From contig JBMNTT010000001.1 in the NCBI GenBank assembly GCA_050945875.1, positions 28,580-92,579 on the forward strand: a DNA stretch of 64,000 bases, read 5' to 3'. Numbering within the stretch: position 1 is the first letter of the stretch; the number at the start of each line of letters is the position of its first letter. The notes under the pieces are model-generated. The model made no database searches and was not told the DNA's origin. It saw only the letters and a list, made by a program, of their open reading frames with translations. Source of the DNA: Christensenellales bacterium. Its GTDB lineage: Bacteria; Bacillota; Clostridia; Christensenellales; JBMNTT01. Position numbers and translations under genes: made by a program. Of the stretch, positions 8,150-64,000 are shown one piece after another.

Positions 8150-8170
8150 CGACGCATACGCCTCCTTCAA

Positions 8171-8823: not shown

Positions 8824-8851
8824 CGGGCAAATATCTAAATTTTGGACAGGG

Positions 8852-9376
8852 CTACCGCTGCGAGGCGGCGCTGCGCTCCAGGCATTGGCGGACGCTGCCC
8901 TCCAGCAGCATCCCCAGCCGCCGGATGGTGCCCTCAGGCTCCTGGCGCATGCCGCTGTTCATCCAGTCGAGCACCATCCCCACCAAGGCCGCCCGGTAGA
9001 AGTTGACCACCAGGGCGCGGTCCGCATCCCCGGCGGGGATATCCGCCGCCAGGCCGCGCACAAAGCGCTCCATCACATCCTGGGCGATGCGGTTGAGGTA
9101 GCGCTCAAACTGCTCGCGGCTGACGGAGTTGTAGATGTGGTAGACCGCGCGCTTGTTGGATAGGGCGAACTGGGCCGCGGCGATAAAGCCCTCCTCCCAG
9201 GAAGCCACGTCGCCGTGCCGAAGCAGGGCCTTTTCGGTCTCCTCCCGCAGAATCTGCTCCACCAGGTCAGGGATGTCGTCAAAGTGGTAGTAGAAGGTAT
9301 TGCGGTTGATGCCGCAGTCCTCCACGATGTCCTTGATGGTGATCTTGTCCAAGGGTTTTTCGTTGAGCAGCTTCAC
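8852..9376 (-). CDS. TetR family transcriptional regulator (DhaS-like); true start probably lies upstream at 9415 (see finding)
   Basis: The HTH region reads KITIKDIVEDCGINRNTFYYHFDDIPDLV. The track start is a GTG at 9376 and would truncate helix 1. Confidence 0.8.
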   Translation of the reverse strand: MKLLNEKPLDKITIKDIVEDCGINRNTFYYHFDDIPDLVEQILREETEKALLRHGDVASWEEGFIAAAQFALSNKRAVYHIYNSVSREQFERYLNRIAQDVMERFVRGLAADIPAGDADRALVVNFYRAALVGMVLDWMNSGMRQEPEGTIRRLGMLLEGSVRQCLERSAASQR

Positions 9377-9460
9377 AAAGGAAGCGACGATCGCTTTTTT
9401 GGTGAATGAGGCGATGGGTTCCTCCCCCTCTCCGTAGATTCAATGCCGCCCTGGCGGGGT

Positions 9461-11707: not shown

Positions 11708-12469
11708 TCAATCGTAGTTCTGCATCTCGATCTTGGTGACGCCCATCTCATCGAAGATGGTCAGCTTGAGGTACTTGCTGAACTCATCCTGGTAGGTGTA
11801 GGTGACATAGCCATGATCCTCGGAGGTGTACACATCCTTGGGCTCGCCGAAGGCGGCCTCCACCTGCTCCTTGGTGGAGCCCCAAGTGATGCCCCCAGCG
11901 ATGGTCATCTCCGGCACGCTGTCCAGCCGCTTAAACCCATAGGTGATCTCGCAGGCAAAACCCCACACCTCGCACTGCAGGATATCCTTGGCCTCATCGC
12001 CATGGTTGACAAAGCCCACGTTGACCCGCAGCTTCTCGCTGTAGTTGGGGTTGGTCAGCTCGATGGTGGAGGTCACCTTGTCGCCCTTATTCAGGATATA
12101 GCCGTCGGCGTGGCCGTAATCCGCCAGGTCGAAGGTCCATCCAGCAGCCTCGAGCTGCTCGTAGGGGAAGAAGATGGCATAGTTCTGCCCGTCGAAGGTA
12201 AACTGCTGGTCCGTCCACTCGGCGGAGAGCTCCCCGGCCGCAGTGGGCGCCTGGGAGGCGGCCGCGCTCTGGGTGGGCTCGGCGGTGGGCGTCGGGCTGG
12301 CCGTCGGCGTGGCCGTGGGCTCAGCGGTGGGCGTCGCGGTCGGCTCGGCCGTGGCTTCCGGCGAGGCGGCGGGCGTCTGCGTGGCCTCGGGCGCGCCGCT
12401 GCAAGCGGTCAACATCAGCGCCAGGGTCAGCGCCGCAGCGCCGAGGCGGGCTTTTTTTGTGCGTGTCAT
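11708..12469 (-). CDS. Lipoprotein with a Pro/Thr/Ala-rich linker
   Basis: The ATG is at 12469. The signal peptide and lipobox read MTRTKKARLGAAALTLALMLTAC|S. The repetitive linker is EATAEPTATPTAEPTATPTASPTPTAEPT, followed by a globular C-terminal domain. Confidence 0.75.
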   Translation of the reverse strand: MTRTKKARLGAAALTLALMLTACSGAPEATQTPAASPEATAEPTATPTAEPTATPTASPTPTAEPTQSAAASQAPTAAGELSAEWTDQQFTFDGQNYAIFFPYEQLEAAGWTFDLADYGHADGYILNKGDKVTSTIELTNPNYSEKLRVNVGFVNHGDEAKDILQCEVWGFACEITYGFKRLDSVPEMTIAGGITWGSTKEQVEAAFGEPKDVYTSEDHGYVTYTYQDEFSKYLKLTIFDEMGVTKIEMQNYD

Positions 12470-12547
12470 CGATGTATCCTCTCTTTCAAGAAAAATCGGC
12501 TCCAGCTTACCCGTTCCCAGCGGAGCTGTCAAGGGCGCTATCCCCCG

Positions 12548-13969
12548 CTATTGGAGCAAATCTACCAGGATTTCCCGGATCAGCCGGGGATTTCCCCGTC
12601 CGCCGGTTTTTTTCATCAACTGCCCGATCAGTGCCTGCAGGGCGGCGGTTTTGCCCGCCCGATAATCCTGCGCGCCGCCGGGGTTGGCGGCGATGACCGC
12701 TTCGGCCAGGGCTCGCAGGGTCTCGCGGTCGCTGATCTGCTCCCAGCCGCGCTGGCGGATCAGCGCCTCGGGGTCTTGATCCTGCGTTAAGAGCGCCTGC
12801 ACCAGCCTGCGCGCGGTGGCGCTGTTGATCCGCTCCCGGGCGGCCAGCTCGGCGACCTGGGCCACGTGGGCCGGGCTGACCGGGATGCGCGCGATGGGGT
12901 CGGGCAGCTGGGGCATAATCTGCCCGACGATCAGGTTGGCGATCAGGCCGGGATGGGCGCTGTCCCGGGCCGCGGCCTCAAAGAAATCCGCCACCTCCCT
13001 TCGCAGGGTCAGCTGCTCGGCGGTCGCCGCGGGCAGGCCGTAGCGGCGCTGATAGTCCGCCTGGCGCGCGTCAGGCAATACCGGGATGGTCTTTTCGATG
13101 GCCGCGACCATCTCCGGGGCGTAGGCGATGGGCGGCAGGTCGGGCTCGGGAAAGTAGCGGTAGTCGTCGGCGTTCTCCTTGCCGCGCAGGGGAAAGGTTT
13201 TGCCGGTCTGCTGGTCGAACCTGCGGGTCTGCTGCACGATGACCTCCCCCGCCTCGAGCGCCTGGGTCTGCCGGGCGTACTCCTGCTCGATGGCCCGGGT
13301 CACCGACTGGAAGGAGTTGAGGTTCTTCATCTCGGTGCGGATGCCCAACTGCGCGCTGCCCGCCGGGCGCACCGACAGGTTGACGTCGCAGCGCAGCGAG
13401 CCCTCGTTCATCCTGCAATCGGAGACGCCGGTATACAGGAGGATCGCCCGGAGCTTCTGCAGATAGGCCCGGGCCTCCTCAGCCGAGCGCAGGTCGGGCT
13501 CGGAGACGATCTCGATCAGCGGCACGCCGCAGCGGTTGCAGTCGATCAGGGTGCCCCTTCCCGGGTCGTGGATCAGCTTGCCCGCGTCCTCCTCGATGTG
13601 GATGCGGGTGATGCCCACCCGCTTGGGCCCCGCGGCGGTCTGCAGGGTCAGGTAGCCATCCCGGCAAAGGGGCAGGTCGTACTGGGAGATTTGGTAGGCC
13701 TTGGGCAGATCGGGGTAAAAATAATTCTTCCGGTCCATCTTGGAGGCGGAGGCGATGGTGCAGTGGGTGGCCAGGCCCGCGCGGATGGCGTGCTCCACTA
13801 CCTGGCGGTTGAGCACCGGCAGGGCGCCGGGCATGCCCATGCACACCGGGCAGCACTGGGTGTTGGGCGGCGCGCCAAAGGCGGTCGGGCAGCCGCAAAA
13901 GATCTTGCTGTCGGTTTTCAGCTCCACATGGACCTCCAGACCGATGACCATCTCATAGGCTTCACGCAT
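12548..13969 (-). CDS. gatB: Asp/Glu-tRNA amidotransferase subunit B
   Basis: The sequence MREAYEMVIGLEVHVELKTDSKIFCGC...NVNLSVR is a GatB signature. The start overlaps the gatA stop by 8 nt (ATGCGTGA). Confidence 0.93.
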   Translation of the reverse strand: MREAYEMVIGLEVHVELKTDSKIFCGCPTAFGAPPNTQCCPVCMGMPGALPVLNRQVVEHAIRAGLATHCTIASASKMDRKNYFYPDLPKAYQISQYDLPLCRDGYLTLQTAAGPKRVGITRIHIEEDAGKLIHDPGRGTLIDCNRCGVPLIEIVSEPDLRSAEEARAYLQKLRAILLYTGVSDCRMNEGSLRCDVNLSVRPAGSAQLGIRTEMKNLNSFQSVTRAIEQEYARQTQALEAGEVIVQQTRRFDQQTGKTFPLRGKENADDYRYFPEPDLPPIAYAPEMVAAIEKTIPVLPDARQADYQRRYGLPAATAEQLTLRREVADFFEAAARDSAHPGLIANLIVGQIMPQLPDPIARIPVSPAHVAQVAELAARERINSATARRLVQALLTQDQDPEALIRQRGWEQISDRETLRALAEAVIAANPGGAQDYRAGKTAALQALIGQLMKKTGGRGNPRLIREILVDLLQ

Positions 13970-15413
13970 GGGAACGCCCCCCTTTCCAGCTCTGCTCAAA
14001 GGCATATCCCGCCCGGTAGAGCAGCGCCTCGTCGAAGGGCTTGCCGATCAGCTGCATGCCGATGGGCAGGCCCTCCCGGTCGATCCCGCAGGGCAGGCTC
14101 AGCGCCGGCGCGCCCGCGATGTTGACCGGCACGGTGTACACATCCCCCAGGTACATCTGCACCGGGTCGTCCACCTTTTCCCCCAGGGCGTAGGCCGTGG
14201 TGGGGGCCACCGGCGCGAGGATGCAATCGTGCTCGGCCAGGACGCGGTCGAAATCCCGGCGCACCAGGGTGCGCACCTGAAGGGCTTTCTTGTAGTAGGC
14301 ATCGTAGTACCCGGCGCTGAGCACAAAGCTGCCCAGCAGGATGCGCCGCTGCGCCTCCGGACCAAAGCCCTGGCTGCGGCTGTCCAGGTAGAGCGCGTCA
14401 ATGTCCCGCGCGCCGGGGGCGCGGTGGCCGTAGCGCACGCCGTCAAAGCGCGCCAGGTTGCTGGAGGCCTCAGCCGAGGAGATGACATAGTAGGCGGGCA
14501 GGGCGTGCCTGAGGCTGGGCAGGCTGACCTGCTCCACCGTCGCGCCCAGGCGTTCATAGGTCGCGGCGGCCTGATGGACGGCCTGGGCGACGTCCGGGGC
14601 CAGGCCCTCGGAGAAGTATTCCTTTGGCAGGGCGATGCGCATCCCCCGCACCCCGCCCTCGATTTCCCGGGTGAAATCCGGCTGGCGGTGGTCCAGGCTG
14701 GTGGCGTCCTTGGGGTCCCGGCCCACCAGGCTGGAGAGCACCAGGGCGTTGTCGCGCACATCCCCGGTCACCGGGCCGATCTGGTCCAGGGACGAGGCGA
14801 AAGCGATCAGCCCGTACCGGGAGACCGCGCCGTAGGTGGGCTTCATGCCCACCACCCCGCAGAAGGCCGCGGGCTGACGGATCGATCCGCCGGTGTCCGA
14901 GCCCAGGGCGAAGGCCGCCTCCTGGGCGGCCACCGCCGCCGCGGCCCCGCCGGAGCTGCCCCCGGGCACCCGGGTGAGGTCGCAAGGGTTGCGGGTGGGG
15001 CCAAAGGCCGAGTTCTCGGTGGTGGAGCCCATGGCGAATTCGTCCATGTTGAGCTTGCCCAGCACCACCGCCCGATCCAGCCGGTCCATGACCGTTGCGC
15101 TGTAGGGCGGCACGAAGTTCGCCAGCATTTTGGAGGCGCAGGTGGTCTGCACGCCCTTTGTGCAGATGTTGTCCTTGACCCCCATGGGGATACCCGCCAG
15201 GGGCGGCAGCGCCTCCCCCGCCCGCCTCGCGCGGTCCACGGCCTCGGCCTGAGCGATGGCCCGCTCGCCGGTGACCCGGATATACGCGCCGACCTCGGGC
15301 TCCCGCTGGGCGATGCGCGCCAGGTAGGTCTCGGTGATCTGTCGGGCGGTCAGCGCGCCCTGCTCCATGGCCTGGCGCAGCTGCCAGACCGACTGTTCTA
15401 GAATGGGTTGCAT
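13962..15413 (-). CDS. gatA: Asp/Glu-tRNA amidotransferase subunit A
   Basis: The ATG at 15413 follows AGAGGAGG. The amidase signature is present: GIPMGVKDNICTKG...GGSSGGAAAAVA. Confidence 0.93.
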   Translation of the reverse strand: MQPILEQSVWQLRQAMEQGALTARQITETYLARIAQREPEVGAYIRVTGERAIAQAEAVDRARRAGEALPPLAGIPMGVKDNICTKGVQTTCASKMLANFVPPYSATVMDRLDRAVVLGKLNMDEFAMGSTTENSAFGPTRNPCDLTRVPGGSSGGAAAAVAAQEAAFALGSDTGGSIRQPAAFCGVVGMKPTYGAVSRYGLIAFASSLDQIGPVTGDVRDNALVLSSLVGRDPKDATSLDHRQPDFTREIEGGVRGMRIALPKEYFSEGLAPDVAQAVHQAAATYERLGATVEQVSLPSLRHALPAYYVISSAEASSNLARFDGVRYGHRAPGARDIDALYLDSRSQGFGPEAQRRILLGSFVLSAGYYDAYYKKALQVRTLVRRDFDRVLAEHDCILAPVAPTTAYALGEKVDDPVQMYLGDVYTVPVNIAGAPALSLPCGIDREGLPIGMQLIGKPFDEALLYRAGYAFEQSWKGGRSHA

Positions 15414-15427
15414 CGGTTTGCCTCCTC

Positions 15428-17503
15428 TCACTCCACGACCTGGGGCACCAGCAGGTACCCCTCCCGCCGCTGGGGCGCGTTTGCCAGCAGCGCCTCGCGG
15501 TCCATCCCGGGCCGGGCCTTATCCTCGCGCAGCACGTTCTGAAGGGGCGCCGCATAGACGGTCTCGGGCACCCCAGCGGTGTCGATTTGCGCCAGCTCGT
15601 CGGCGAAGGCGATGATGCCCCGCAGCTGCCCGGTCAACCGGTCCCGATCGGCGGGATCGATGCGCAGACGCGACAGGGCCGCCACCCGATCCAGGTCCAG
15701 GCGCGGGCGCTCGGGCCGCTGGGCCGGGGTCCGGGCAGCCGGCGCGCCCCCCGTTAAGCCCAGGGCGGCGAGCTGCTCGGCGTCCACCGGGCCAGGCGCG
15801 TCGGTCATCAGGCAGGCGGCCTCCTTGTTTTTGGGGAAGGCGATGACCTCCCGCAGGGATTCGGCCTGCAGCAGCTGCATTGCCAGCCGATCCAGGCCGA
15901 AGGCGAAGCCGCCGTGGGGCGGGGTGCCGTACTGGAAGGCGTTGACCATGAACCCAAAGCGCTCTTGAATCTGCTCCTCGTCGAAACCCAGGGCCTGGAA
16001 CATCGCCCGCTGCACCTGCTGGTCGTGGATGCGGATGCTGCCGCTGCCCAGCTCGACGCCGTTGAGCACCACGTCGAAGGCCTGGGCCCGCACCCGCGCC
16101 GGGTCGCTGAGCAGATAGGGCACATCCTCGGGGTAGGGCATGGTAAAGGGATGGTGGGTGGCCAAGAAGCGGCCCTCGCTCTGGCTCCACTCGAACTGAG
16201 GAAAGTCAGTGACAAGGACAAAGCGGAACTCCCCGCCCCGCCGCAGCCCCAGCAGCTCCGCCAGGTCCAGGCGCAGGCCGCCCAGGGTACGGAGGACCAC
16301 CTCCTGCTGGTCGGCGCAGAAGAGGATGAAATCCCCGGGCCGCCCGTCCACCGCTCTCATCAGCGCGTCCCACTGCGGCGGGGTGAAATACTTGGTCAGG
16401 ATGGAGTAGGGCTCCCCATCCTCCCGGATGGCGATCCAGGCCATGCCCTTGGCGCCGTAACCCAGGGCCTTGTCGGTCAGCGCCTCGATGACGCCGCGGG
16501 AGAAGCCCGCGCAGCCCTTGGCGTTGATGGCCCGCACCCTGCCGCCCTGCTCGACGGCCCGGCGGAACACCGAGAAGGCGCAATCCGCCATCAGCTCGGT
16601 CAGCTCGACGATGGGCAGCCCGAAGCGCAGGTCGGGCTTGTCACTGCCGTAGCGATCCATGGCCTCGCGCCAGGTCAGCCGGGGAAAGGGCTCGGCGATG
16701 GACCGGCCCATCATGCGCGCGAACAGATGCTTGAACAGGGCCTCCAGGTGGGTCAAAATATCCTCCTGGTCCACGAAGGACAGCTCCATGTCCACCTGGG
16801 TGAACTCGGGCTGGCGGTCGGCGCGCAGGTCCTCATCCCGGAAGCAGCGGGCAATCTGATAGTACCGGTCGACGCCGCCCACCATCAGCAGCTGCTTGAA
16901 GATCTGCGGGGACTGGGGCAGGGCGTAGAACGCCCCGGGGCGCGCCCGGCTGGGCACCAGATAATCCCGCGCGCCCTCGGGGGTAGACTTGGTCAGCATG
17001 GGGGTCTCCACCTCCAGGAAACCCGCCCGGTCGAGATAATCGCGCGCTTCCCGCGCCAGCTGGGCCCGAAAGCGCAGGTTGCGCTGCATCTGGGGCCGGC
17101 GCAGGTCCAAAAAGCGGTATTTGAGCCGCAGCTCCTCGCGCACGCCGCCGGCCTCCTCCAGGGGAAAGGGCAGTCTGGCCGCCTGGCTGAGCAGCGCCAC
17201 CTCGGCGGCCTCCAGCTCGATGGTGCCGGTTTTCAGGCGCGGGTTGTAGGTGTCCGCATCCCGGATGCGCAGGGTCCCTGTCGCGGCGAACACCGACTCC
17301 AGCCGTACCGACTCGGCCAGGGCGAACTGGTCGGCGGGCAGATTGCCCGCGTCCACCACCACCTGCAGCTCCCCTTCCCGGTCCCGCAGGTCCAGGAAGA
17401 TGACGCCGCCCATGTCCCGCTTATTGGCGACCCACCCCATCGCCGTGATCCTCCGGCCCACATCGGCCTCGGTCAGCGCCCCGCAATAGGCTGTCCGTTT
17501 CAT
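15428..17503 (-). CDS. aspS: Aspartate--tRNA ligase (bacterial type with GAD insertion) fused in frame to a C-terminal GatC domain
   Basis: The ATG is at 17503 (MKRTAYCGALTEADVGRRI...). The class II motifs are FRDEDLRADRQPEFTQVDMELSF and GGFAFGLDRL. The AspRS C-terminus ...FPKNKEAACLMTDAPGPVDAEQLAALGLT is followed by a linker, GGAPAARTPAQRPERPR. The linker is followed by a GatC-like ~90 aa segment running to ...LLVPQVVE and the stop at 15428. Confidence 0.85.
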   Translation of the reverse strand: MKRTAYCGALTEADVGRRITAMGWVANKRDMGGVIFLDLRDREGELQVVVDAGNLPADQFALAESVRLESVFAATGTLRIRDADTYNPRLKTGTIELEAAEVALLSQAARLPFPLEEAGGVREELRLKYRFLDLRRPQMQRNLRFRAQLAREARDYLDRAGFLEVETPMLTKSTPEGARDYLVPSRARPGAFYALPQSPQIFKQLLMVGGVDRYYQIARCFRDEDLRADRQPEFTQVDMELSFVDQEDILTHLEALFKHLFARMMGRSIAEPFPRLTWREAMDRYGSDKPDLRFGLPIVELTELMADCAFSVFRRAVEQGGRVRAINAKGCAGFSRGVIEALTDKALGYGAKGMAWIAIREDGEPYSILTKYFTPPQWDALMRAVDGRPGDFILFCADQQEVVLRTLGGLRLDLAELLGLRRGGEFRFVLVTDFPQFEWSQSEGRFLATHHPFTMPYPEDVPYLLSDPARVRAQAFDVVLNGVELGSGSIRIHDQQVQRAMFQALGFDEEQIQERFGFMVNAFQYGTPPHGGFAFGLDRLAMQLLQAESLREVIAFPKNKEAACLMTDAPGPVDAEQLAALGLTGGAPAARTPAQRPERPRLDLDRVAALSRLRIDPADRDRLTGQLRGIIAFADELAQIDTAGVPETVYAAPLQNVLREDKARPGMDREALLANAPQRREGYLLVPQVVE

Positions 17504-17534
17504 GCAATCCGCCTCCTCGTCTATTTTTTGGAAA

Positions 17535-17845
17535 TAAAAAAGCCTTTCGTCCCAAAAATATGGGACGAAAGGCACATCCACTGCGCGCTCCGCGGTACCA
17601 CCCAAATAGGCTGAAGCTTCAGCCCACTCAATCCAATTATGGTCTGCGGCGGTTAACGGGCCGCAACCCCGTCGAAGCCTACTTGCCCGAGGGCTTTGGG
17701 TTCGCCGCTCCGGGATGTTCTTCCACCCAACCGCTCGCACCGGGCTCTCAGCATCCCCGGCTCTCTGGGCCTTGCGGCTGGGCTTACTCTTCCCATCATC
17801 GCGCTTATCGTGTGCGTCCGGCGCTGGCGCCGAACGGATGATTCA
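17535..17845 (-). promoter_or_regulatory. T-box riboswitch leader (apparent Asn/AAC specifier) controlling aspS-gatC-gatA-gatB
   Basis: The following are read on the minus strand. The Stem I elements are GCGAUGA, AAGAGUA, AGAGAG and GGUGCGA. The specifier loop is GGAAG-AAC-A (AAC at 17719-17717). The T-box sequence is UUUGGGUGGUACCGCG (GGGTGGTACCGCG at 17603-17591). The terminator GCCTTTCGTCCC-loop-GGGACGAAAGGC (17573-17542) is followed by TTTTTT. Confidence 0.85.
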
Positions 17846-54347: not shown

Positions 54348-55160
54348 ATGTTCAACGGCAGCTATGAAATCTTCGAGGACGAGCAGCAGCCGCATTTTCG
54401 CCGCTCCACCCTCAACGCCCTGACCTTTATCCCCCACCTACATCGGCAGTATGAGCTGATCTACGTGGTGGAGGGGGCCATGGAGGCGCATATTCAAGGG
54501 ACCAGCCACCTGCTGCGAGCGGGCGAGCTGTCCCTGGCGCTGAGCCACCAGCTGCACTCCTACGCCACCCGGGAGCCGGGCCGATACTTCATGTGCATCT
54601 TCGAGCCCGAACTGGTGCCCCAGTTTTCCGATCATATCCGAAAAAAAGAGTTGGGTATGCCATACCTAACCGATTGTACCATCCAAGAGCGCCAGGAATT
54701 GTCGCTGCTGATCGACCGCATCTTCGAGGATCGCGCGGGTGAGCTGCGCATCAGCGGGTATATGACCGCCCTGCTGGCCCTGATGGCGGAGAAGACCGGC
54801 GTCATGGCCTCCCAGGGGCCTCAGCGCACCAGCCTGCTGCAGCAAGCGCTGACCTACATCGCTCAGAACTATGATCAGGATATCACCCTGCAGTCCGCCG
54901 CCCAGGCCCTGGGCCTGTCCCACTACTATCTCTCCCGGCTGTTCAACCAGCAGACCGGCTACAGCTTTCCCGAGTACATGATGCACTTTCGCATCAACCA
55001 TGCCCGAGGGCTGTTGATGAGCACCGACCGGGCAATCTACGACATCGCCCTGGCCAGCGGATTCGAGTGTACCCGGTCCTTCAACCGGGCCTTCGTCCGC
55101 GTCACCGGCATGACCCCCACCCAATACCGCAGACAAGCGCAGAATCAGACCGCGCCATGA
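54348..55160 (+). CDS. AraC family transcriptional regulator
   Basis: The C-terminal double HTH reads LQSAAQALGLSHYYLSRLFNQQTGYSFPEYMMHFRINHARGLL...GFECTRSFNRAFVRVTGMTPTQYR. Confidence 0.9.
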   Translation: MFNGSYEIFEDEQQPHFRRSTLNALTFIPHLHRQYELIYVVEGAMEAHIQGTSHLLRAGELSLALSHQLHSYATREPGRYFMCIFEPELVPQFSDHIRKKELGMPYLTDCTIQERQELSLLIDRIFEDRAGELRISGYMTALLALMAEKTGVMASQGPQRTSLLQQALTYIAQNYDQDITLQSAAQALGLSHYYLSRLFNQQTGYSFPEYMMHFRINHARGLLMSTDRAIYDIALASGFECTRSFNRAFVRVTGMTPTQYRRQAQNQTAP

Positions 55161-57550
55161 GGAGGACTCCCTTGACCCAACCGACCCATCGCAACCAGCA
55201 TCCCTTCGCCCAAATTTTACCCCGGCCCCGCCTGGACCGGTTGATGGACCATGCCCTGGGCGCCAACCTGATCGTCATCGGCGCGGCGCGGGGCTGGGGC
55301 AAGCGCACCCTGGCGCGCGACCATCTATCCCGGCGGCATCTGCCGGTGCACTGGCTGCAGCTGTCCGCGGCGGATCAGCCCGCCGCGCTGCGGATGCGTC
55401 AGGCCCTGGAGGATGTCCAGCGCCGTCCTGGCCCCCAGATAGTGGTGTTGGAGGATGTGCCCGCGGACACCGAACAGGATCTGGTGCGCCTGGCGGTTCA
55501 GGGCGTCGGCACGCCCCCGCCCGATGTCAAGGTGCTGTTTCTGGTCAACCGCTGCCTAACCGGCGAGGAGCTGGGCTTGGCCCTGCCGGTGCAGACCGCG
55601 GCCATCCACCAGGGGGAGTTGGCCTTCACCCGGGAGGAGGTCGCCGCCTACTTCCAGCAGGTCGGGATCCAGCTGGAGGGCAAAGCGGTCTCCGCGCTGA
55701 TGGCCCACACCGCCGGCATGGCCGCCGCCCTGGAGGCAATCTGCCAGGTCTACAGCGCCCACCGCGGCTGGGAGCCCCAATACGCCCAAAAGGTGCAGCA
55801 GCAGCTCCAGCCCTTGTTTGCCTGGGACCTGTGGCAACGGACGGATGCGCTCACCCGGGACCTGCTCATCGATATGGCGCTGGCCGGCCGGTTCACCCGG
55901 CAGATGCTCCGTTTCCTGCACCCCGAGCCCGAGACCGACGCGCGGTTGGACGACCTGGTGCGCAGCGGGCAAGTGTTGCCCGAAACCGACGCGCCCTGGT
56001 ACGCCCTGCAGCCCCAGGCTCGCGCCTTCTTGCTTGATTGCCCGGAGCGAGCGGACGAGCCGGCGCGCTGCGCGCGTATCGCCCGGTGGCATCTCCAGCA
56101 GGGAGCGCTGCGGGCGGCGCTAGCCTGCTGCACCCGCGCCGCTCAACCCGGCCTGTTGGGCGAGATCGCCGAGCGCATCCTCTTTAAGCAGCTGGACTTG
56201 GACATTTTTCAATCGCTCAGCGACGCCCTCAACAGCGTGCCCGAGCAGCAGGCCAGCCAGGAGCCCAGCCTGTGCTGCGCCCTGTGCTGCCTGGAAACCC
56301 TCAATGCGCGTGCGTCCCTGGCCAATCGGTGGCGGCGACGGTTGGAGGCGCTTTGCGCCCAGTCGCCCACCTTGGACAATCGCCAGCGCGTGTATCATGC
56401 CCAGCTGCTGACCGCGCCGGACGACGTCAGCCTCTATCACCGGTTTGTCAAGCGCCAGGAGGACATCGCGCCCCTGCAGAGCGACCTGGTTCTGCGCCAG
56501 TACACCTACATGATCCATGGCATAGTCAGCCTGCCCCACTGGCAACGGCACACGCCGGTGCTCAAGAAGCTCTTTGCCGGGCAAATTGAGCAGATTTTCG
56601 GGCCCATCGCCGAGGGAATCGAGCAGTTTTGGGCCTCCCACTGCCATTATGAGCGCGATCAGCTCAGCCAGAGCCTGGTGGAGGTCTCCAGCGCCTGCGC
56701 CGCGTGTGAGACCCAAAAGCTGGGCCAACTGCGCGCCGCCATCCATCTGCACCTGGCCCGGGTGCTGAGCGCCTATGGGCGATTGCCCGAGGCGACAGCC
56801 CTGCTGGACCGGCTCGCGGAGGATATCCTGGCCCAAGATACGCCCCTCCCCCCGGCGTTGGAGCCCCTTCGCATCCACTTCGCCCTGCTGGAGGGAGATT
56901 GGGGGCGGGTGTCCGCCTGGATGCGCATGGGCGCGCCGGATGACACCGCGCCCCTTCACGTGCTCTGCGCCGACGCCTTCACCATCAAGGCCAAGATCGA
57001 GCTGATACAGGGCCAACCCGACCGGGCCCTGGTGCTGCTGACGCGGCTGTCGAGTTTCCACCGAGCGGGCCAGCGGGTGCTGCCCCGCATCCACGCCCAG
57101 CTGCTGCAGGCGGCCTGTCTGGATCGCCTGGGCGAACGAACGCTGGCCCAGCAAACCCTGAGCGAGGCGCTCAGCGTCGGGCAGCGCCTGGGCTATGTGC
57201 GGGTTTTTGCCGACGAGGGACCGTTGGCTTTGGGATTGCTGCGTCAATACCGCACCGACGCACTCGACCCGGCATACCGCCGCGCAGTGCGCGACGCGGC
57301 GCAGCGCTGCACCCAGGCGTACCCCGCCTATGGGCGCACAGCCCAACGCCCAGCGCCCCGTCTGACCCCGGCGGAGCGCCGGGTGCTGGAGCTATTGGCC
57401 CAGGGGATGAGCAACCAGCAAATCAGCCAGGCGCTGGACATCCGTCTGCCCACCGTCAAAAACCACGCCTCCCACATCTACGCCAAGCTGCAGGTGCGCA
57501 GCCGATCCGCCGCCATCAACGCCGCCAAGGAGCGAGGACTGCTGCCCTGA
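55157..57550 (+). CDS. Large LuxR-family regulator (MalT/LAL-like; degenerate P-loop, helical repeats, C-terminal LuxR HTH)
   Basis: The ATG at 55157 overlaps the AraC stop (ATGA). The P-loop-like segment is VIGAARGWGKRTL. The C-terminus reads LTPAERRVLELLAQGMSNQQISQALDIRLPTVKNHASHIYAKL. Confidence 0.8.
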   Translation: MRRTPLTQPTHRNQHPFAQILPRPRLDRLMDHALGANLIVIGAARGWGKRTLARDHLSRRHLPVHWLQLSAADQPAALRMRQALEDVQRRPGPQIVVLEDVPADTEQDLVRLAVQGVGTPPPDVKVLFLVNRCLTGEELGLALPVQTAAIHQGELAFTREEVAAYFQQVGIQLEGKAVSALMAHTAGMAAALEAICQVYSAHRGWEPQYAQKVQQQLQPLFAWDLWQRTDALTRDLLIDMALAGRFTRQMLRFLHPEPETDARLDDLVRSGQVLPETDAPWYALQPQARAFLLDCPERADEPARCARIARWHLQQGALRAALACCTRAAQPGLLGEIAERILFKQLDLDIFQSLSDALNSVPEQQASQEPSLCCALCCLETLNARASLANRWRRRLEALCAQSPTLDNRQRVYHAQLLTAPDDVSLYHRFVKRQEDIAPLQSDLVLRQYTYMIHGIVSLPHWQRHTPVLKKLFAGQIEQIFGPIAEGIEQFWASHCHYERDQLSQSLVEVSSACAACETQKLGQLRAAIHLHLARVLSAYGRLPEATALLDRLAEDILAQDTPLPPALEPLRIHFALLEGDWGRVSAWMRMGAPDDTAPLHVLCADAFTIKAKIELIQGQPDRALVLLTRLSSFHRAGQRVLPRIHAQLLQAACLDRLGERTLAQQTLSEALSVGQRLGYVRVFADEGPLALGLLRQYRTDALDPAYRRAVRDAAQRCTQAYPAYGRTAQRPAPRLTPAERRVLELLAQGMSNQQISQALDIRLPTVKNHASHIYAKLQVRSRSAAINAAKERGLLP

Positions 57551-57644
57551 GCCCGGCGATGCAAGCGCCTGGGTCGGCGAACGCCCTGCGCGGACGCGCC
57601 GCCATGCCGCATCCCGCCGACAAGCGCCCGGCGGGGCGCAACCG

Positions 57645-57672
57645 AAAAAGGCCGCCCTTGCGGGCGGCCTTT
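57645..57672. terminator. Bidirectional intrinsic terminator between convergent units
   Basis: The structure is AAAAA-GGCCGCCC-ttgc-GGGCGGCC-TTT. Confidence 0.7.
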
Positions 57673-57684
57673 ACCGTGGGTTTA

Positions 57685-59190
57685 CTACAGGTGCGTCAGA
57701 TGGGCCAAGAGATCCTGGTCGTGATCCAACAGCTCCAGGAAAGTGCGCACGATGTCGGCGTCGAACTGGGTACCCGCGCCCTCGATCAGTTGCTGGCGAG
57801 TCTGATCCAAGCTCAGATGCGCGCGGTACTGCCGGTCGCTCATCATCGCATCGAAAGAATCGGCCACATTGATGATCCGGGCCAGCGGCTCGATCTGCTC
57901 CCCCTTGAGCCCGTCAGGATAGCCCTCGCCATCGTAGCGCTCATGGTGGTGGCGCACAATGGGCACCATGTCCTGGAACATGCTCACCGCCGAGAGAATC
58001 ATCGCCCCCTTGATGGGGTGCTGCTTGATCTGCTCAAACTCCGCCGCGCTGAGTTTGTCGGTCTTGAGCAGGATATCGTCCGCGGTGCCGATCTTGCCGA
58101 TGTCGTGGAAGATGCCCGCGATGCGCAGCTTTTCCATGTCCTCATCGGACAGGCCCATGCGCTGGCCGATCTTGCCCGCAAAGTAAGCCACCCGGTCAGA
58201 ATGGCCCCGGGTGTACTCATCCTTGGCGTCCACCGTCAGGCGCAGCACCTCAATGGTATCCATATAGCGCACCTTCAGCTGGGCGTAGGTGTTGTTGAGC
58301 TCCTCGTTCTTGGTGTTGACCAGGGAGTGCAAAAAGGCGTTGCTCACCGACGAGGCCGCCTGCCGCGCGTAGATTTCCAGCAGCCGCACGCCCTCATCCA
58401 GGTGGCTGGAGGAGACGTAGATCGCGCCGATGGCATTGCTGTGCTCATCCAATAGCGGCAGGATCACCCCGTCCTCCAGCAGGATGGTCCGGCTGTCGGT
58501 GCGCGCCCGGCCCACCGCCTCCATCAGCTCATGGTCCAACAGTTCCGTAAAAGAGTCGATGGGCACGTTGAACCGGCCGATCCCGCGGAAGATGCTCCGG
58601 TTGCTCTCCCCCTGGCCCCGGCTGGGCAAATCATCCACCAGGATGAACGCGTCGGCGCTCTGCACCATGGGCAATAGTTGCTGGAGAATCTCCTCCAGAA
58701 TGTTGCCGATGGGCTGAAGCTGATAGATCTTGGGCACCGCGCCCAGGATGGAATTGAGCCCATCGCGGAACTTCTTGATAATGCGCATCTGGGCGATGGA
58801 CTTGATGCCGGACTCAATGAGCAGTTGCAGCTGGTCCAGCCGGTCGCTCTTCTCGCAGTAGGCCTGGATATCCAGGCTCTTGATGGTCTCGATGGGGGGC
58901 GCCATGTCCTTATGTCCGGTCAGCAGCAGGATATAGAGCTCCTTGTTGGTCCTGCGAATCTGCTCAACCACCGCGTCCCCGTGCAGCGGCTGCATAAAGA
59001 AATCCAACACCAACAGATCGAAGGGTTCCTCCTCCAGTACCTTGAGCGCCTCCATGGGGTCGGTATAGCCCACGCACCAGTATCCGTTGCGGTTGAGCAT
59101 GGCTTTGACGCTGTCGATAATGCCTTCCTCGTCGTCCACCAGCATGATCTTAAATTCTTTTGATAAGGGGGTCGCGTGGCTCTTGCGCAT
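57685..59190 (-). CDS. Response regulator with REC, a GAF-like middle region and an HD-GYP domain (predicted c-di-GMP phosphodiesterase)
   Basis: The REC domain reads IMLVDDEEG...FDLLVLDFFM...LLLTGH. The HD-GYP domain reads GHSDRVA...FHDIGKIG...HHHERYDGEGYPDGL. The SD AAGGAG lies inside the kinase gene's 3' end. Confidence 0.85.
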   Translation of the reverse strand: MRKSHATPLSKEFKIMLVDDEEGIIDSVKAMLNRNGYWCVGYTDPMEALKVLEEEPFDLLVLDFFMQPLHGDAVVEQIRRTNKELYILLLTGHKDMAPPIETIKSLDIQAYCEKSDRLDQLQLLIESGIKSIAQMRIIKKFRDGLNSILGAVPKIYQLQPIGNILEEILQQLLPMVQSADAFILVDDLPSRGQGESNRSIFRGIGRFNVPIDSFTELLDHELMEAVGRARTDSRTILLEDGVILPLLDEHSNAIGAIYVSSSHLDEGVRLLEIYARQAASSVSNAFLHSLVNTKNEELNNTYAQLKVRYMDTIEVLRLTVDAKDEYTRGHSDRVAYFAGKIGQRMGLSDEDMEKLRIAGIFHDIGKIGTADDILLKTDKLSAAEFEQIKQHPIKGAMILSAVSMFQDMVPIVRHHHERYDGEGYPDGLKGEQIEPLARIINVADSFDAMMSDRQYRAHLSLDQTRQQLIEGAGTQFDADIVRTFLELLDHDQDLLAHLTHL

Positions 59191-59196
59191 GGATAA

Positions 59197-61035
59197 TTAT
59201 GCTCCTTCTCTGGCGGCGATCGTGCTTGGCAATTCAATATAGAAAGTGGTCCCCTCTCCCTTTTGGGAGGTAAACCACATGTCCCCCTGAAACATCCCCT
59301 TTACCGTACTATAGGACATGTACAGGCCCAGGCCGGTACCGTTCTTCCCTTTCGTGGTGATCATTTCCTTAAACAGGCGGCTACCGATCTTCTCGTCGAT
59401 CCCCGGCCCGCGATCCTGAACGGATATAAGAATTTTATCCCGTATCCTGTCGATTTGCAAGATAATTTCTCCGCCTTTTCCAGCGTATGCCTGCACCGCG
59501 TTGACGATAATATTGTCCAAGATTTGCACCATGGCGTTCAGATCCCCATAAATCGGCGTATTCTCCGATAGGTTGACCGACTCCGTCAGGGTGACGCCAT
59601 TTTTTACCAATTCATGTTGCATCAAGATACGCACCCGGCGCAGCATCTCGTAGACCGGGAAGGAGGACCGGGAGGTGACGTTCAACTGCGCAGCCTGGTC
59701 CTTGACGGCGGAGATGATCTCGGACATATAGGCCATGTGCCCTTTGAGCTTGCCCAGCCAATTGACCATCTCCCCAGCGATCTCGTGGTGATCCGCGGGG
59801 GTGACCTCGGGGTCCTCGATGGAGTCGTCGTACTCCTGGGCCAGATACTTGAGCTGGTCCAACCCGCCGGAGACCGCCATGATGGGGGTTTTGAGGTTAT
59901 GGGCGATGCCGCCGATGAGCTGACCCAGGCTGGCCAGGCGCTCGCGCTCAAGCAGAATAGCCTGGTTGGCCTGTATTTTCTCCAGGTCCATGATGTGCTC
60001 GGTGATATCCTTAAACAGCAGGATCACCGCGTCGCACCGGTTCTGCCGGAAGATGGGGGTGAACTCCACGGTGTAGTACCGGCGCGCGCCGCGCTCCTCA
60101 AAGTCCACCTCCGCGGTGCCGATCGCGTTATATTTCCCCGCCTGATCAATCTGATGCTTGATCAGGTCGATCTGCTCCGGGGACAGCTGGGTGCCGACAA
60201 GCACCTGGGTCAGGGACTCCCTGGGCGAGATGGCCTTGCCCTGAAAAAACGCGCCGGCAAAAGATTGGTTGTAGTCGATGATATCCAGTTGGGGCGTCAC
60301 CACCACGAACCCGTCGGAGATGCGGTTGATGACGGTCTGCAAGGCCACCGGCGCGATGCGCAGCAGGTTGAACTTAAACATCGCCAGCAGATAGCACAGC
60401 AAGGTGAAGGTGAAGGCCAGGGGCGTGGAGTACACGTTGAACCCCGGCGCCGCCAGGGTATAGCAGATGTTGACCACCGCGGGCACCACACTGCCGATAA
60501 CGATCAACCAGGCCTGGATGCCCTGCACACCGCTGTTCTTGATGGCAAAATAGCACAGCATCGCCCAGCCGGTAATCATGCAGACGTAAGAGTAGACCGC
60601 GTGCACGTAAAAATACAGGCCGGGCACATTGCCGCCCATGGGCGAGTAGACCTGGTAGAACAGGTGATGGTAGGGGTTGGTCCACACCATCACCTGGGTG
60701 ATGACCGGCACGATCAACAACAGCAAGGCCTTTTTCGGGATGCCCTGGTCCGCGCGACCGTACGCCAGACCCAGGAATACCAGGCTCACGCCGATGAACG
60801 CCGAGCCCACATACGTTAGGTTCTCCCAGATCAGGGCGATATCCATGTCGTGGGCGTAGACGCCCTGCAGCAAAGCCGCCCCGCTCCAGACGACCATCGC
60901 CCCGGTCATGGCGAGAAAGACATGGTGCAACGGGCGTTTTTCCCGCTGGCGCAGGATGTAGATCCCCATCACCACCAGGGCCACCAGGCCGACGCACACC
61001 CCGTAGAAGGACGGGGAATAGGGTCGATTGTTCAT
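59197..61035 (-). CDS. Sensor histidine kinase with an N-terminal 7TM domain, a PAS-like domain, HisKA and HATPase
   Basis: The ATG at 61035 follows AGGAGG. Seven hydrophobic segments are present. The H-box is LIGGIAHNLKTPI, the N-box is DNIIVNAVQA, and the G-boxes are DRGPGID and GTGLGL. Confidence 0.85.
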   Translation of the reverse strand: MNNRPYSPSFYGVCVGLVALVVMGIYILRQREKRPLHHVFLAMTGAMVVWSGAALLQGVYAHDMDIALIWENLTYVGSAFIGVSLVFLGLAYGRADQGIPKKALLLLIVPVITQVMVWTNPYHHLFYQVYSPMGGNVPGLYFYVHAVYSYVCMITGWAMLCYFAIKNSGVQGIQAWLIVIGSVVPAVVNICYTLAAPGFNVYSTPLAFTFTLLCYLLAMFKFNLLRIAPVALQTVINRISDGFVVVTPQLDIIDYNQSFAGAFFQGKAISPRESLTQVLVGTQLSPEQIDLIKHQIDQAGKYNAIGTAEVDFEERGARRYYTVEFTPIFRQNRCDAVILLFKDITEHIMDLEKIQANQAILLERERLASLGQLIGGIAHNLKTPIMAVSGGLDQLKYLAQEYDDSIEDPEVTPADHHEIAGEMVNWLGKLKGHMAYMSEIISAVKDQAAQLNVTSRSSFPVYEMLRRVRILMQHELVKNGVTLTESVNLSENTPIYGDLNAMVQILDNIIVNAVQAYAGKGGEIILQIDRIRDKILISVQDRGPGIDEKIGSRLFKEMITTKGKNGTGLGLYMSYSTVKGMFQGDMWFTSQKGEGTTFYIELPSTIAAREGA

Positions 61036-61046
61036 GCGCTCGCCTC

Positions 61047-64000
61047 CTATCTCGACCGCTCCAGCCCGTCCAGCAGCCGCGCCAGGTAGGGCGCGTCCGC
61101 CGGAGGGATGGCGCATCCCGCCCGCCGTAGCCAAGGCTCCGTGCCCTGGGTGGACAGGCGAATCTTTCCGCCCACATCCGCGCTGCCCAGCTGCTCCATC
61201 ACGCCGGGCAGGTCCCGCTCGGACACCCGGCTGAGGGCCTCGCGCCGGAAAACCGCGTCGGGCGCGAAGCGAACCGGTCGGCCCAGCTGAGTCAACATCC
61301 GCGCCAGTTCGGCCACCGACAGCTGCTGGGGGTTACACAGATGGAAAACCCGCTGATGCAGACCCGGCAGGCTGGCCAGGGCGACCAGAGCCCGGGCGCA
61401 GGCGTCCACCGGGGTCATCTCCAGCAGATGCTCGCGGATACTCTCGGGCGCGAGCCCCAAGTGGATCATGGCCAACAGCCGGTTGGCGAAAGCGTTCTTC
61501 TCCGGGCGGCGCTGGAAGCCGCCGTCGCTATGTCGACCGGTCAGCACGCCCACGCGGAAAATGCGCGCCGGCAGGCCCTTCTGGGCGGCCCCCAGCACCA
61601 GGGTCTCGGCCAGCAGCTTGCTGTGGACATAGGGGTTGCCCCCATCCTCCTGGCCGACATAGCAGTCCCGCTCGGTGAACACGCCGCTGCGCTCGGGCTG
61701 ACCCCGGTAGCCAACGCCCGACACCGACACGGTGGATACATGCAATAGCTGGGCTCCGGCCCGCTTCGCCCAGGCGATCACATGGGCGGTGCCCTGGGTG
61801 TTGACCCGCTCGAACAGGGCGGCGTCGCCCACGTGGTCGGTGATGGCGGCGCAGTGGATGACCGTGTCCACCCCGGGCAGGGCTTCGTCGGTCAGGCGCG
61901 GCCGGGTGACGTCCCCGGGCACGGCATAGACCCTGCCCGCAAAGCGCGCGCCCTGGCCGGGGAAGTAGAAATCGAGCGTCTCGTCCAGCCGACGCTGGGC
62001 CTCGGCCCGATCCCGGCCCCGCACCAGGCAGGCGACCCGGCAGCCCGGCCGGCCGGCCAGCTCGTCGAGCACATGGGCGCCCAGGTAGCCCGTCGCGCCG
62101 GTGAGCAGCACATGCCCCATCGGCGCGGGGGTCAGAGCGGGATCGTCGGCCACGGGCCGGTCCTTCCAGGCCGCCAGGGGATCCCGGCCCTGAGGCTCGG
62201 CGCGCTGCCGCTCCAGCGAAGCGCACAGCGCGCGAAGGGTGCGCAGGTCGTAAAAATCCTGGGTGCGCAGCGCCACGCCCAGGGGCATCAGCGCCGCCTG
62301 CACCTTGATCACCGCCAGGGAGTCGCCGCCCAGGTCGAAAAAGCTATCCTCGGGCAGCACCTGATCCACGGCGAGCACCTTCTTCCAGATGCGGGCCATG
62401 CGGCGCTCCCAGGGGGTGTAGGCCACCTTGCCGGCGGGTTTGGCGCTGGGTTGCTCGGTCAGTTTCGGATCGGGCAGCGCCCGGCGGTTGACCTTGCCGT
62501 TGGCGGTCAGGGGGAAGGCGGTCAGGTGCACGAAGTAGGCCGGCACCATGTAGGCCGGCAGGCCCGCGCCCAAGCTGGCGCGCAGCTCGCCCTGGTCGAT
62601 GGGCCGCTCGGCGACATAGTAGGCGCACAGGTACTTGTTGGGGCCCTGATCCAGGTCCCGCACCAGGGCGGCCTCCACGCCCTTAACCCGGCGCAGGGCG
62701 GCCTCAATCTCGCCCAGCTCGATGCGCAGACCCCGGATTTTGACCTGGTGGTCCACCCGGCCGCGAATCTCCATCTCCCCGTCCTCCCGGTAGCAGCACA
62801 CGTCGCCGGACTGGTACATGACGTTGCCCGGGCGGAAGGGATCGGGCAGGAACTTCTCAGCGTTGAGCTGGGGCCGGTTGATGTAGCCGGTGGCCACGCA
62901 GGCCCCGCTGATGTAGGCCTCCCCCAGCACCCCGATGGGCGTGGGATGGCGGTAGGCGTCCAGGATATACATGCGGGTGTTGATCATGGAGCGGCCGATG
63001 GTGATGTGGTTGGTATGGGTCAGGTCCTTGAAGGTGCAGTACACCGTGGTCTCGGTAGGTCCATAGCCGCTGATCAGCGTGGCCTTGGGCAGGTAGCGCT
63101 TGAGCAGCTTGAGCAGCGACAGGGGGTACTCCTCCCCGCCGAGGACCATCTTGCGGATGTGCGCCCCCGCGGCTCGGCGGAAGGAGGCGTCCTCCATCAG
63201 CAGGCGCATGCGGGTGGGCGTGGTCTGGATAAAGCCCACATCCTCCCGCTCGATCAGCGCCGCCAGCAGCGGCGGCTGGCGCAGCTCCTCCTCGGTGCAC
63301 AGCGCCACCGCGCAGCCGTACAAAAGCGGCAGCAGGCAGTCCACCACAAAGATGTCAAAGGACACGGTGGTCACCGACACGCTCTTCATCCACTGGGGGT
63401 ATCCGATGCTCTGGCGCACATCCTCATAGAGGTTGCGCATCGCCCGCCGGGGCAGGATCGCCCCCTTGGGCACGCCGGTGGAGCCCGAGGTGTAGATCAC
63501 ATAGCAGGGGTCCTCGGCGCCGGCCAGGTCCACGGGGTTCTCCCCCGCTCCCTGGTCGCCGATCTCGCCCAGCCGCAGCACCTTTCCGGCGAACGCCCCC
63601 AGCGAGCCGCTGCCGTCGGTCAAGAGCACCGTGGCTCCGCTGTCGCGCAGCATGAAGCCCACGCGGTCAGCGGGATAGCTGGGGTCCAGGGGCAGATAGC
63701 CCGCCGAGGCCTTGAGGATGCCGAACAGGCCCGCCACCATGTCCAGGCTGCGCCGGGCGCACAGGGCCACCAGGGTGCCCCGGCCGACGCCCGCCGCCTT
63801 CAGCGCCCAGGCGATGGCGTTGGCCCGGGCGTTGAGCTGGGCGAAGGTGTATCGCTCCCCGGCCACCACCAGGGCTTCGCGCTCCCCCTGGTCCCGGGCG
63901 ACGCGCTCCAGGATGCCCGGCACGCTCGCGCCGAAATCCACCGGCGCGTCGGTCTGATTAAAGCCCTGGGTCAGCTGATCGAACTCGGCCTGGCTGAGCA
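61047..64000 (-). CDS. Non-ribosomal peptide synthetase, terminal module A-T-R (adenylation, carrier, thioester reductase); 5' end lies outside the window
   Basis: The A-domain motifs are YVIYTSGSTGVPKG, GYGPTETT, GELEIRG-type and NGKVNRRALP. The PCP motif is FFDLGGDSLAV. The R domain has LLTGATGYLGAHV and YVHSK. The frame stays open upstream of the track start (...LSQAEFDQLTQGFNQTDAPVDF) to nt 64000. Confidence 0.88.
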   Translation of the reverse strand, partial: LSQAEFDQLTQGFNQTDAPVDFGASVPGILERVARDQGEREALVVAGERYTFAQLNARANAIAWALKAAGVGRGTLVALCARRSLDMVAGLFGILKASAGYLPLDPSYPADRVGFMLRDSGATVLLTDGSGSLGAFAGKVLRLGEIGDQGAGENPVDLAGAEDPCYVIYTSGSTGVPKGAILPRRAMRNLYEDVRQSIGYPQWMKSVSVTTVSFDIFVVDCLLPLLYGCAVALCTEEELRQPPLLAALIEREDVGFIQTTPTRMRLLMEDASFRRAAGAHIRKMVLGGEEYPLSLLKLLKRYLPKATLISGYGPTETTVYCTFKDLTHTNHITIGRSMINTRMYILDAYRHPTPIGVLGEAYISGACVATGYINRPQLNAEKFLPDPFRPGNVMYQSGDVCCYREDGEMEIRGRVDHQVKIRGLRIELGEIEAALRRVKGVEAALVRDLDQGPNKYLCAYYVAERPIDQGELRASLGAGLPAYMVPAYFVHLTAFPLTANGKVNRRALPDPKLTEQPSAKPAGKVAYTPWERRMARIWKKVLAVDQVLPEDSFFDLGGDSLAVIKVQAALMPLGVALRTQDFYDLRTLRALCASLERQRAEPQGRDPLAAWKDRPVADDPALTPAPMGHVLLTGATGYLGAHVLDELAGRPGCRVACLVRGRDRAEAQRRLDETLDFYFPGQGARFAGRVYAVPGDVTRPRLTDEALPGVDTVIHCAAITDHVGDAALFERVNTQGTAHVIAWAKRAGAQLLHVSTVSVSGVGYRGQPERSGVFTERDCYVGQEDGGNPYVHSKLLAETLVLGAAQKGLPARIFRVGVLTGRHSDGGFQRRPEKNAFANRLLAMIHLGLAPESIREHLLEMTPVDACARALVALASLPGLHQRVFHLCNPQQLSVAELARMLTQLGRPVRFAPDAVFRREALSRVSERDLPGVMEQLGSADVGGKIRLSTQGTEPWLRRAGCAIPPADAPYLARLLDGLERSR

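Follow-up and report, generated by a model that had tools for sequence, protein, structure and literature searches.

A small non-ribosomal peptide synthetase conserved beside a 7TM sensor kinase and an HD-GYP response regulator in anaerobic Firmicutes and some Coriobacteriia

Why should the gene for a small non-ribosomal peptide synthetase (NRPS) be followed, within a few nucleotides, by genes for a membrane sensor kinase and a response regulator of the HD-GYP type? The question is raised by a 64,000-nucleotide stretch (hereafter the window) of a Christensenellales metagenome-assembled genome (MAG; GCA_050945875.1, contig JBMNTT010000001.1), of which positions 57,685–64,000 were studied in detail. 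Sequence reading and Pfam searches place three minus-strand genes there, encoding the NRPS, a seven-transmembrane (7TM) histidine kinase and a REC-DUF3369-HD-GYP regulator. The initial annotation of this DNA had proposed that peptide synthesis is yoked to a two-component system with a second-messenger output, and the near-universal linkage of these genes among relatives supports that reading. Recurrence of the trio in about 80 species suggests that the peptide may be a self-made signal with its own receptor. The specific form that is favoured here, tentatively and with somewhat less than even confidence, is a self-contained five-gene cassette in which the 7TM sensor detects an N-acyl peptide product and signalling lowers the level of cyclic di-GMP (c-di-GMP).

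The linkage was surveyed from the kinase side in a scan that took one genome per species and was based on an alignment of 29 kinase orthologues, which returned 80 loci at 39–58% kinase identity. The five cassette proteins were mapped onto all 80, of which 78 had at least 1.5 kb of upstream DNA and 75 were informative for the regulator. In 78/78 loci the gene directly 5′ of the kinase orthologue encodes an NRPS, lies on the same strand and ends at most 240 nt from the kinase start codon (median estimated gap −1 nt); the separation of synthetase and kinase in relatives, which the initial annotation had named as the outcome that would count against it, is therefore not what is seen. An HD-GYP regulator lies 3′ of the kinase, on the same strand and at a distance of 500 nt or less, in 61 of the 75 informative loci, and within the close clade the kinase–regulator gaps are mostly −8 to +40 nt. 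By median identity in that clade the regulator is the most conserved protein (72%), followed by the kinase (52%) and the NRPS (50%).

The hosts include Christensenellales, Oscillospiraceae, Sporobacter, Papillibacter, Lachnospiraceae and Peptococcaceae, together with many Clostridia MAGs from human, rabbit, mouse and chicken gut and three Coriobacteriia MAGs, and the G+C content of the loci spans 25% to 66%. Genes outside the cassette vary by locus (Tex, LigB-AMMECR1 with a radical-SAM gene, or MutS2), and these differing flanks identify the cassette itself as the conserved unit, whilst the range of kinase identity argues against most loci being one recently spread mobile element.

Conservation was also examined from the NRPS side, with the adenylation-thiolation-reductase (A-T-R) part visible in the window as the query; the relatives retained contained a reductase, covered the query in full at 33–42% identity and lay on a usable contig (n = 7). 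All seven adjoin a gene for a membrane sensor, an HD-GYP protein or both. Two are followed by a 7TM kinase and a REC-DUF3369-HD-GYP regulator, and one, on a short contig, has as its last gene an ORF that begins 2 nt beyond the NRPS stop and aligns with the N-terminal part of the kinase; two have a 601-aa multi-transmembrane (multi-TM)-GGDEF-HD-GYP fusion 21–24 nt downstream, and two have a divergent multi-TM-HD-GYP protein of 432–439 aa. The single control, a generic NRPS match without a reductase, had no membrane-sensor or HD-GYP neighbour. Given these alternative wirings, the constant parts are a small NRPS, a membrane sensor and an HD-GYP domain, and there is strong genomic evidence that the small NRPS is functionally linked to cyclic-dinucleotide signalling, through at least three wirings.

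Between the GGDEF-HD-GYP and HD-GYP types, the multi-TM domains show clear homology (37% identity, E 3e-26, motif DQLIHGxIT); homology of the fused-type domain to HisKA_7TM was considered and rejected (profile search E ~1). At loci L083–L086 and L088–L089, single-module NRPSs of the order C-A-T-R, where C is a condensation domain, adjoin membrane HD-GYP proteins with a common multi-TM domain of ~200 aa that carries the motif DQLIHG(D/E)IT and has no Pfam match.

The synthetases themselves differ between loci. Beside the kinase and regulator, Pfam searches of representative loci reveal the architectures C-A-T-C-A-T-R, C-A-T-R, C-A-T-C-A-T-TE (with a terminal thioesterase, as in Sporobacter termitidis DSM 10068) and C-A-T-TE; three-module NRPSs are also found, and the A-domain codes follow Thr-, Ser-, Gly-, Val- and Pro-like patterns. 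The initial annotation had coupled the kinase and regulator specifically to a reductase-terminated NRPS. The link to the pair is kept, but the reductase is not an essential partner, since TE-released and single-module relatives retain both genes. The constant element is a small synthetase starting with a C domain, as do the NRPS partners in the 78 loci.

The NRPS gene extends past the window edge, as the initial annotation had suspected from its open reading frame (ORF), and its remainder is supplied by L001, an 11.9-kb contig with an identical kinase, which matches the window at 100% identity over 5170 nt and adds 6.7 kb upstream. On this contig the gene runs from 2344 to 9702, is 100% identical across the overlap and encodes a full protein of 2452 aa with the order C-A-T-C-A-T-R. 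Further 5′ are genes for an ANL-family acyl ligase (548 aa) and then a 73-aa acyl carrier protein (ACP). The complete cluster order is thus putative promoter, acyl-AMP/CoA ligase, ACP, NRPS, kinase, regulator and terminator, with intervals of 12, 26, 11 and 6 nt between the five genes and a terminator only 3′ of the regulator. The best promoter-like site of L001 (369–397), TTGAAA-17-TACAAT with an upstream TG, lies within an AT-rich spacer, ~40 nt 5′ of the ligase ATG.

Table 1. Coordinates of the cassette features in the window
Feature	Position	Strand	Basis
NRPS 3′ part, module 2 A-T and terminal reductase	61047..64000	-	Pfam; gene extends past window edge
NRPS–kinase junction, 11 nt	61036..61046	-	Direct sequence reading
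Sensor histidine kinase, 612 aa	59197..61035	-	Pfam; NCBI MGI6199212.1
Kinase–regulator junction, 6 nt	59191..59196	-	Direct sequence reading
Response regulator, 501 aa	57685..59190	-	Pfam Response_reg, DUF3369, HD_5; NCBI MGI6199211.1
Intrinsic terminator hairpin ending the apparent operon	57645..57672	-	11-bp G+C-rich stem + U5

Direct reading of the sequence bore out every coordinate of the initial annotation (Table 1). The NRPS stop (TAG 61049–61047) is followed by the kinase ATG at 61035, whose Shine-Dalgarno (SD) sequence GGAGG (61047–61043) overlaps that stop codon; the kinase stop (TAA 59199–59197) is followed by the regulator ATG at 59190, whose SD sequence AAGGAG (59207–59202) lies within the kinase gene. 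The regulator ends at TAG 57687–57685, followed by an in-frame TAA. A terminator scan detected no terminator-like site at the NRPS–kinase or kinase–regulator junction, and a promoter scan detected no promoter-like site at the NRPS–kinase junction. The hairpin that the initial annotation had placed after the regulator was not picked up by the simple terminator scan and was recovered by folding, with its stem and U5 tract present in both the minimum-energy and centroid folds. On the basis of this gene spacing, the five genes form one apparent operon and would be co-transcribed.

The hairpin lies between the regulator gene and a convergent gene (55067–57550, plus strand) for an 827-aa MalT-like regulator, with tetratricopeptide repeats (TPR) and a LuxR/GerE helix-turn-helix (HTH), which shares the terminator region. 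This gene was considered as a part of the cassette and rejected, as it is absent beside the cassette in the orthologous loci examined. Across 57500–64000 of the window, the NRPS part has a G+C content of ~0.69, and the value drops to ~0.57 for the kinase and regulator genes. A separate horizontal origin was considered for this drop and is rejected by the pattern in the 75 loci, where the kinase and regulator have a less extreme G+C content than the NRPS in GC-rich and AT-rich hosts alike, as is expected from stronger constraint on their protein sequences.

In the visible part of the NRPS, Pfam places AMP-binding at 62883–63911, PP-binding at 62220–62399 and NAD_binding_4 at 61389–62105, and the reductase motifs GATGYLG and YxxxK (as YVHSK) are intact on sequence reading; together with the Condensation domain these define an NRPS with a terminal thioester reductase. 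Among the best solved matches to the first C domain are two starter C domains, CDA-C1 (4jn3) and RzmA (7c1h); Txo1/Txo2 score higher. The ligase may be either a fatty acyl-AMP ligase (FAAL) or an acyl-CoA ligase. Extraction of the A-domain codes, a step that the initial annotation had proposed, used a GrsA fragment validated against 1AMU and gave DIMVGGFICK and DIVQVGGVYK. No canonical Stachelhaus code could be named as a match for either, hence no residues or substrates are predicted for the window NRPS. The upstream acyl ligase, the ACP and the putative starter C domain point to a product that is probably an N-acyl dipeptide aldehyde. The cassette contains no dedicated exporter gene.

The kinase consists of a HisKA_7TM domain (PF16927, 60349–60990; 154 bits against a cut-off of 28.6, E 6e-45), a PAS_4 domain (59998–60327) and an HATPase_c domain (59221–59547; 75 bits), and its phospho-accepting His379 (codon 59901–59899) is located in the dimerisation and histidine phosphotransfer (DHp) region. 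The 29 orthologues show no variation in the H, N, G1 and G2 boxes (H379, N508/N512, D541/G545 and G566–G570); the protein has the 7TM domain, the DHp histidine and the ATPase boxes of a HisKA_7TM sensor histidine kinase. It stops after HATPase_c at residue 612 and has no REC or HPt domain. The start codon in Table 1 agrees with the annotation of MGI6199212.1 and with the orthologue alignments. Kinase homologues number thousands, and among the matches listed the identity is 43–57%, save for one strain variant at 99%.

The regulator is made up of REC (58825–59148), DUF3369 (58324–58812) and HD-GYP (57751–58242) domains. Its translation contains the REC residues D19/D20, D63, T91 and K114 (Response_reg 58 bits; Asp63 codon 59004–59002), which supply the acidic pocket, the phospho-accepting Asp and the Thr and Lys of a REC domain, and the HD-GYP catalytic signature reported by the initial annotation is indeed intact, comprising HDIGK (H362 and D363, at 58107–58102) and HHHERYDGEGYP (G423–P425, at 57924–57916), with 123 bits to HD_5. 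Homology to active enzymes is evident from the best solved relatives, V-cGAP3 (5z7c, E 4e-38) and PmGH (4mcw, E 1e-34), and as relatives of both the cyclic GMP-AMP (cGAMP) and the c-di-GMP type score, the substrate may be c-di-GMP or a related cyclic dinucleotide. No DNA-binding domain is present in the regulator, and an enzymatic output follows from this. Two forms occur among the loci, one of ~500 aa (REC-DUF3369-HD-GYP) that is tightly coupled to the kinase, and one of ~350–375 aa (REC-HD-GYP) with larger spacers, which is seen in AT-rich gut Clostridia.

Genes for further large proteins of c-di-GMP turnover were observed at two loci. In L009 (13440–17369) a GGDEF-HD-GYP protein with PAS/GAF domains directly follows the regulator, and in L025 (13812–16412) a large GGDEF-HD-GYP protein is encoded one gene further downstream.

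These features can be assembled into a working model. One promoter 5′ of the acyl ligase would drive the ligase, ACP, NRPS, kinase and regulator genes. The ligase would charge the ACP with a fatty acid, the starter C domain would N-acylate residue 1, module 2 would add residue 2 and the reductase would free an N-acyl dipeptide aldehyde. Within the membrane, the kinase encoded alongside would then detect this lipophilic product through its 7TM domain, autophosphorylate on His379 and pass the phosphate to Asp63 of the regulator, and the HD-GYP domain would hydrolyse c-di-GMP (or a related cyclic dinucleotide) and thereby switch behaviour governed by c-di-GMP.

Product sensing is favoured because two lines of evidence go beyond synteny, namely the independent rewirings around related NRPSs and the co-divergence of the 7TM and A domains. 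The latter was analysed over 57 two-module loci by multiple regression on distance matrices (MRM), alongside Mantel-type tests. Differences in the 7TM domain account for those in the A-domain specificity codes (MRM beta 0.64, p 5e-4), and in the same regression the kinase catalytic core (beta −0.28) and the faster-evolving PAS domain (0.13) contribute little of this kind; the pattern is kept in both subclades. The raw and partial Mantel/MRM signal is strong. Co-evolution specific to the code residues was considered and is rejected, since the signal is largely gone when the remainder of the A domain enters as a covariate. The co-divergence is therefore suggestive only as support for product sensing.

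Several observations weigh against the proposed product-sensing cassette. With the rest of the A domain as covariate, the 7TM–code signal drops to beta 0.02–0.22, and the Mantel-type co-divergence tests are inflated by shared ancestry. The regulator is displaced, inverted or absent in 14 of the 75 informative loci: in two it is inverted but adjacent, in eight it is further off (one of these inverted, making three inverted in total) and in four it is absent from the flank, at least two of which have a TraG-type conjugation gene at that position. The HD-GYP domain scores slightly higher against V-cGAP3, which is specific for 3′3′-cGAMP, than against the c-di-GMP enzyme PmGH. The sole minus-strand promoter-like site in the studied part of the window, a weak one (9/12, 59460–59432), lies within the kinase gene. 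Neither in L001 nor in six orthologous loci was a c-di-GMP riboswitch or other Rfam element found 5′ of the operon, hence no RNA-level feedback route onto synthesis is visible. Guo 2017 and Schneider 2018 are said to have assigned a protease-inhibitor role to gut NRPS aldehydes. A published summary treats related gut-NRPS aldehydes as protease inhibitors (PMC12327764).

One of the loci lacking a flanking regulator, L047, has a gene for a TraG/type IV secretion system (T4SS) coupling protein and a small ORF (11882–13853) where the regulator is missing, which suggests disruption of the regulator slot by a conjugative element; genes of similar size occur in L065 and L067. Locus L008 (JBLNCA010000025.1) comes from a MAG labelled Burkholderiales, and its cassette is nearly identical to that of the Bacillota MAG L007; the contig is probably mis-binned.

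The alternative that survives best, though on balance it is unlikely, is that the two-component system senses an unrelated external or physiological cue, for instance the state of the envelope or a lipid from host or diet, and that the operon co-expresses a metabolite and a c-di-GMP-lowering activity as one lifestyle programme. HisKA_7TM is a widespread sensor domain without a known ligand that is also present in archaeal kinases, the kinase carries a cytoplasmic PAS domain as well, and one kinase family is found beside NRPSs whose predicted products differ widely, which would suit a generic sensor. A generic sensor would, however, not be expected beside an NRPS in 78/78 species whilst the flanks change, nor to be swapped for other membrane-sensor-HD-GYP proteins near related NRPSs. 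Divergence of the kinase 7TM domain also parallels that of the A domains.

A second alternative, rather unlikely as well, is feedback or self-protection in the producer, with the kinase monitoring the build-up of a reactive lipopeptide aldehyde or membrane damage, and c-di-GMP hydrolysis tuning envelope, export or production instead of conveying information from cell to cell. Peptide aldehydes are reactive electrophiles, N-acylated ones are membrane-active and the sensor is embedded in the membrane; the lack of a dedicated exporter would also fit, and control of secondary-metabolite output by c-di-GMP in other bacteria is described in a B. pseudomallei preprint. Against this, relatives released by a thioesterase, whose products are not aldehydes, retain the same kinase and regulator, and no c-di-GMP-responsive element is seen 5′ of the operon. 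This alternative also overlaps with the favoured model, as the product would still be the ligand and only the purpose would differ. Incidental adjacency of compactly spaced but functionally independent neighbours is highly improbable: it could appeal to the weak promoter-like site in the kinase gene and to the fact that co-transcription is argued here from spacing and the lack of obvious signals, but is effectively refuted by synteny in 78/78 loci across a wide range of G+C content and taxa with unrelated flanks, and by the generic NRPS control that has no such neighbour.

Extended beyond this locus, sensing of the product by a co-encoded receptor would point to a widespread class of signalling, cell-cell or autocrine, that has so far gone unrecognised in anaerobic Firmicutes and some Coriobacteriia, a possibility that we regard as real but doubtful. 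In such a class, N-acyl amino-acid or dipeptide aldehydes or acids made by small NRPSs would be the signals, the co-encoded 7TM kinase or, in other lineages, a fused membrane-HD-GYP protein the dedicated receptor and cyclic-dinucleotide hydrolysis the output, with signal and receptor co-diversifying between species. If this is true, Gram-positive anaerobes would have a counterpart of diffusible signal factor (DSF)/Rpf signalling, NRPS-aldehyde autoinducers would have a first candidate receptor class, and in Christensenellales and other gut lineages that are abundant but poorly cultured, natural-product biosynthesis would be tied to the control of lifestyle by c-di-GMP. Signalling would then be the primary role of the gut "dipeptide aldehyde" NRPS family, and the supply of host protease inhibitors a secondary one. 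The products of small reductase-terminated gut-Clostridia NRPS clusters are hard to detect in producers, and a conserved adjacent candidate receptor with a defined output makes the native role of these NRPSs directly addressable.

Elsewhere in the window, a single uninterrupted minus-strand ORF (15428–17740) encodes a full aspartyl-tRNA synthetase (AspRS; OB fold, tRNA-synt_2 and GAD) with a C-terminal GatC domain, preceded by a T-box leader and followed by gatA and gatB (the associated intervals are 12548–15431 and 17558–17808); the arrangement resembles a transamidosome operon that contains an AspRS-GatC fusion. At 3975–8170, also on the minus strand, a 706-aa MMPL-family transporter adjoins a 692-aa membrane protein without a Pfam match.

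In terms of biosynthesis, the NRPS of the cassette belongs with the gut-Clostridia dipeptide-aldehyde/pyrazinone NRPSs, reportedly the family of Guo et al. 2017, and with the rup (ruminopeptin) cluster of Ruminococcus bromii, reportedly that of Schneider & Balskus 2018. Common to them are a two-module NRPS, a terminal reductase and hosts among gut or anaerobic Clostridia, and N-acylation machinery is predicted for the cassette as well. The products of the gut family are described as (N-acyl) dipeptide aldehydes (PMC12327764), and the difference lies in their published role, which is protease inhibition. Pvf (PvfC), the aureusimines (AusA) and the pyrazinone/DPO/autoinducer-3 (AI-3) systems also employ A-T-R or C-A-T-R NRPSs that release amino aldehydes. 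Such reductase-released aldehydes act, or are proposed to act, as cell-cell signals, and the Pvf receptor is still unknown (PMC10194917). None of these clusters is known to include a kinase or HD-GYP gene, in contrast to the cassette, which encodes a candidate receptor beside the synthetase.

A full-text literature search returned no paper linking such NRPSs to a 7TM kinase and HD-GYP pair; the search did not extend to the cluster drawings in Guo 2017 and Schneider 2018, where these genes may appear. The initial annotation was aware of no description of this arrangement, which holds for the linkage in the searched literature but not for its logic, which has precedent in agr and Rpf/DSF. The agrBDCA operons bring together signal biosynthesis, a receptor kinase with a polytopic membrane domain and a response regulator, and signal and receptor diversify jointly between lineages. 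The cassette likewise pairs a synthase, a candidate receptor kinase and a regulator in one apparent operon. In agr, however, the signal is a ribosomal thiolactone peptide and a LytTR transcription factor feeds back on the operon promoter, whereas the proposed signal of the cassette is non-ribosomal and its output is a predicted cyclic-dinucleotide phosphodiesterase.

In the Rpf/DSF system, the fatty-acid signal DSF binds the membrane kinase RpfC and thereby activates the REC-HD-GYP regulator RpfG, which degrades c-di-GMP (PMC6337780). As with Xanthomonas rpfB, rpfF, rpfC and rpfG, the signal-synthesis genes of the cassette, including an acyl ligase, are clustered with those for a polytopic kinase and a REC-HD-GYP regulator, and a lipid-like diffusible signal acting on the kinase and c-di-GMP hydrolysis as output, both proposed for the cassette, would complete the likeness. 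The differences lie in the synthase, an NRPS rather than the crotonase-family RpfF (no enoyl-CoA hydratase (ECH)-family, RpfF-type gene is present in the cassette), in the kinase, which is of the 7TM-PAS type rather than a hybrid HisKA-HATPase-REC-HPt protein like RpfC, in the additional DUF3369 domain of the regulator, in the hosts, which are anaerobic Firmicutes and Coriobacteriia, and in the arrangement of all genes in one co-directional operon. Lacking both an RpfF-type synthase and a hybrid kinase, the cassette stands outside the Rpf family. The likeness is a functional one, with sequence-level orthology of the sensors lying outside the comparison, and in these terms Rpf/DSF is the closest working analogue of the cassette, which would operate in the same manner with an NRPS in place of RpfF.

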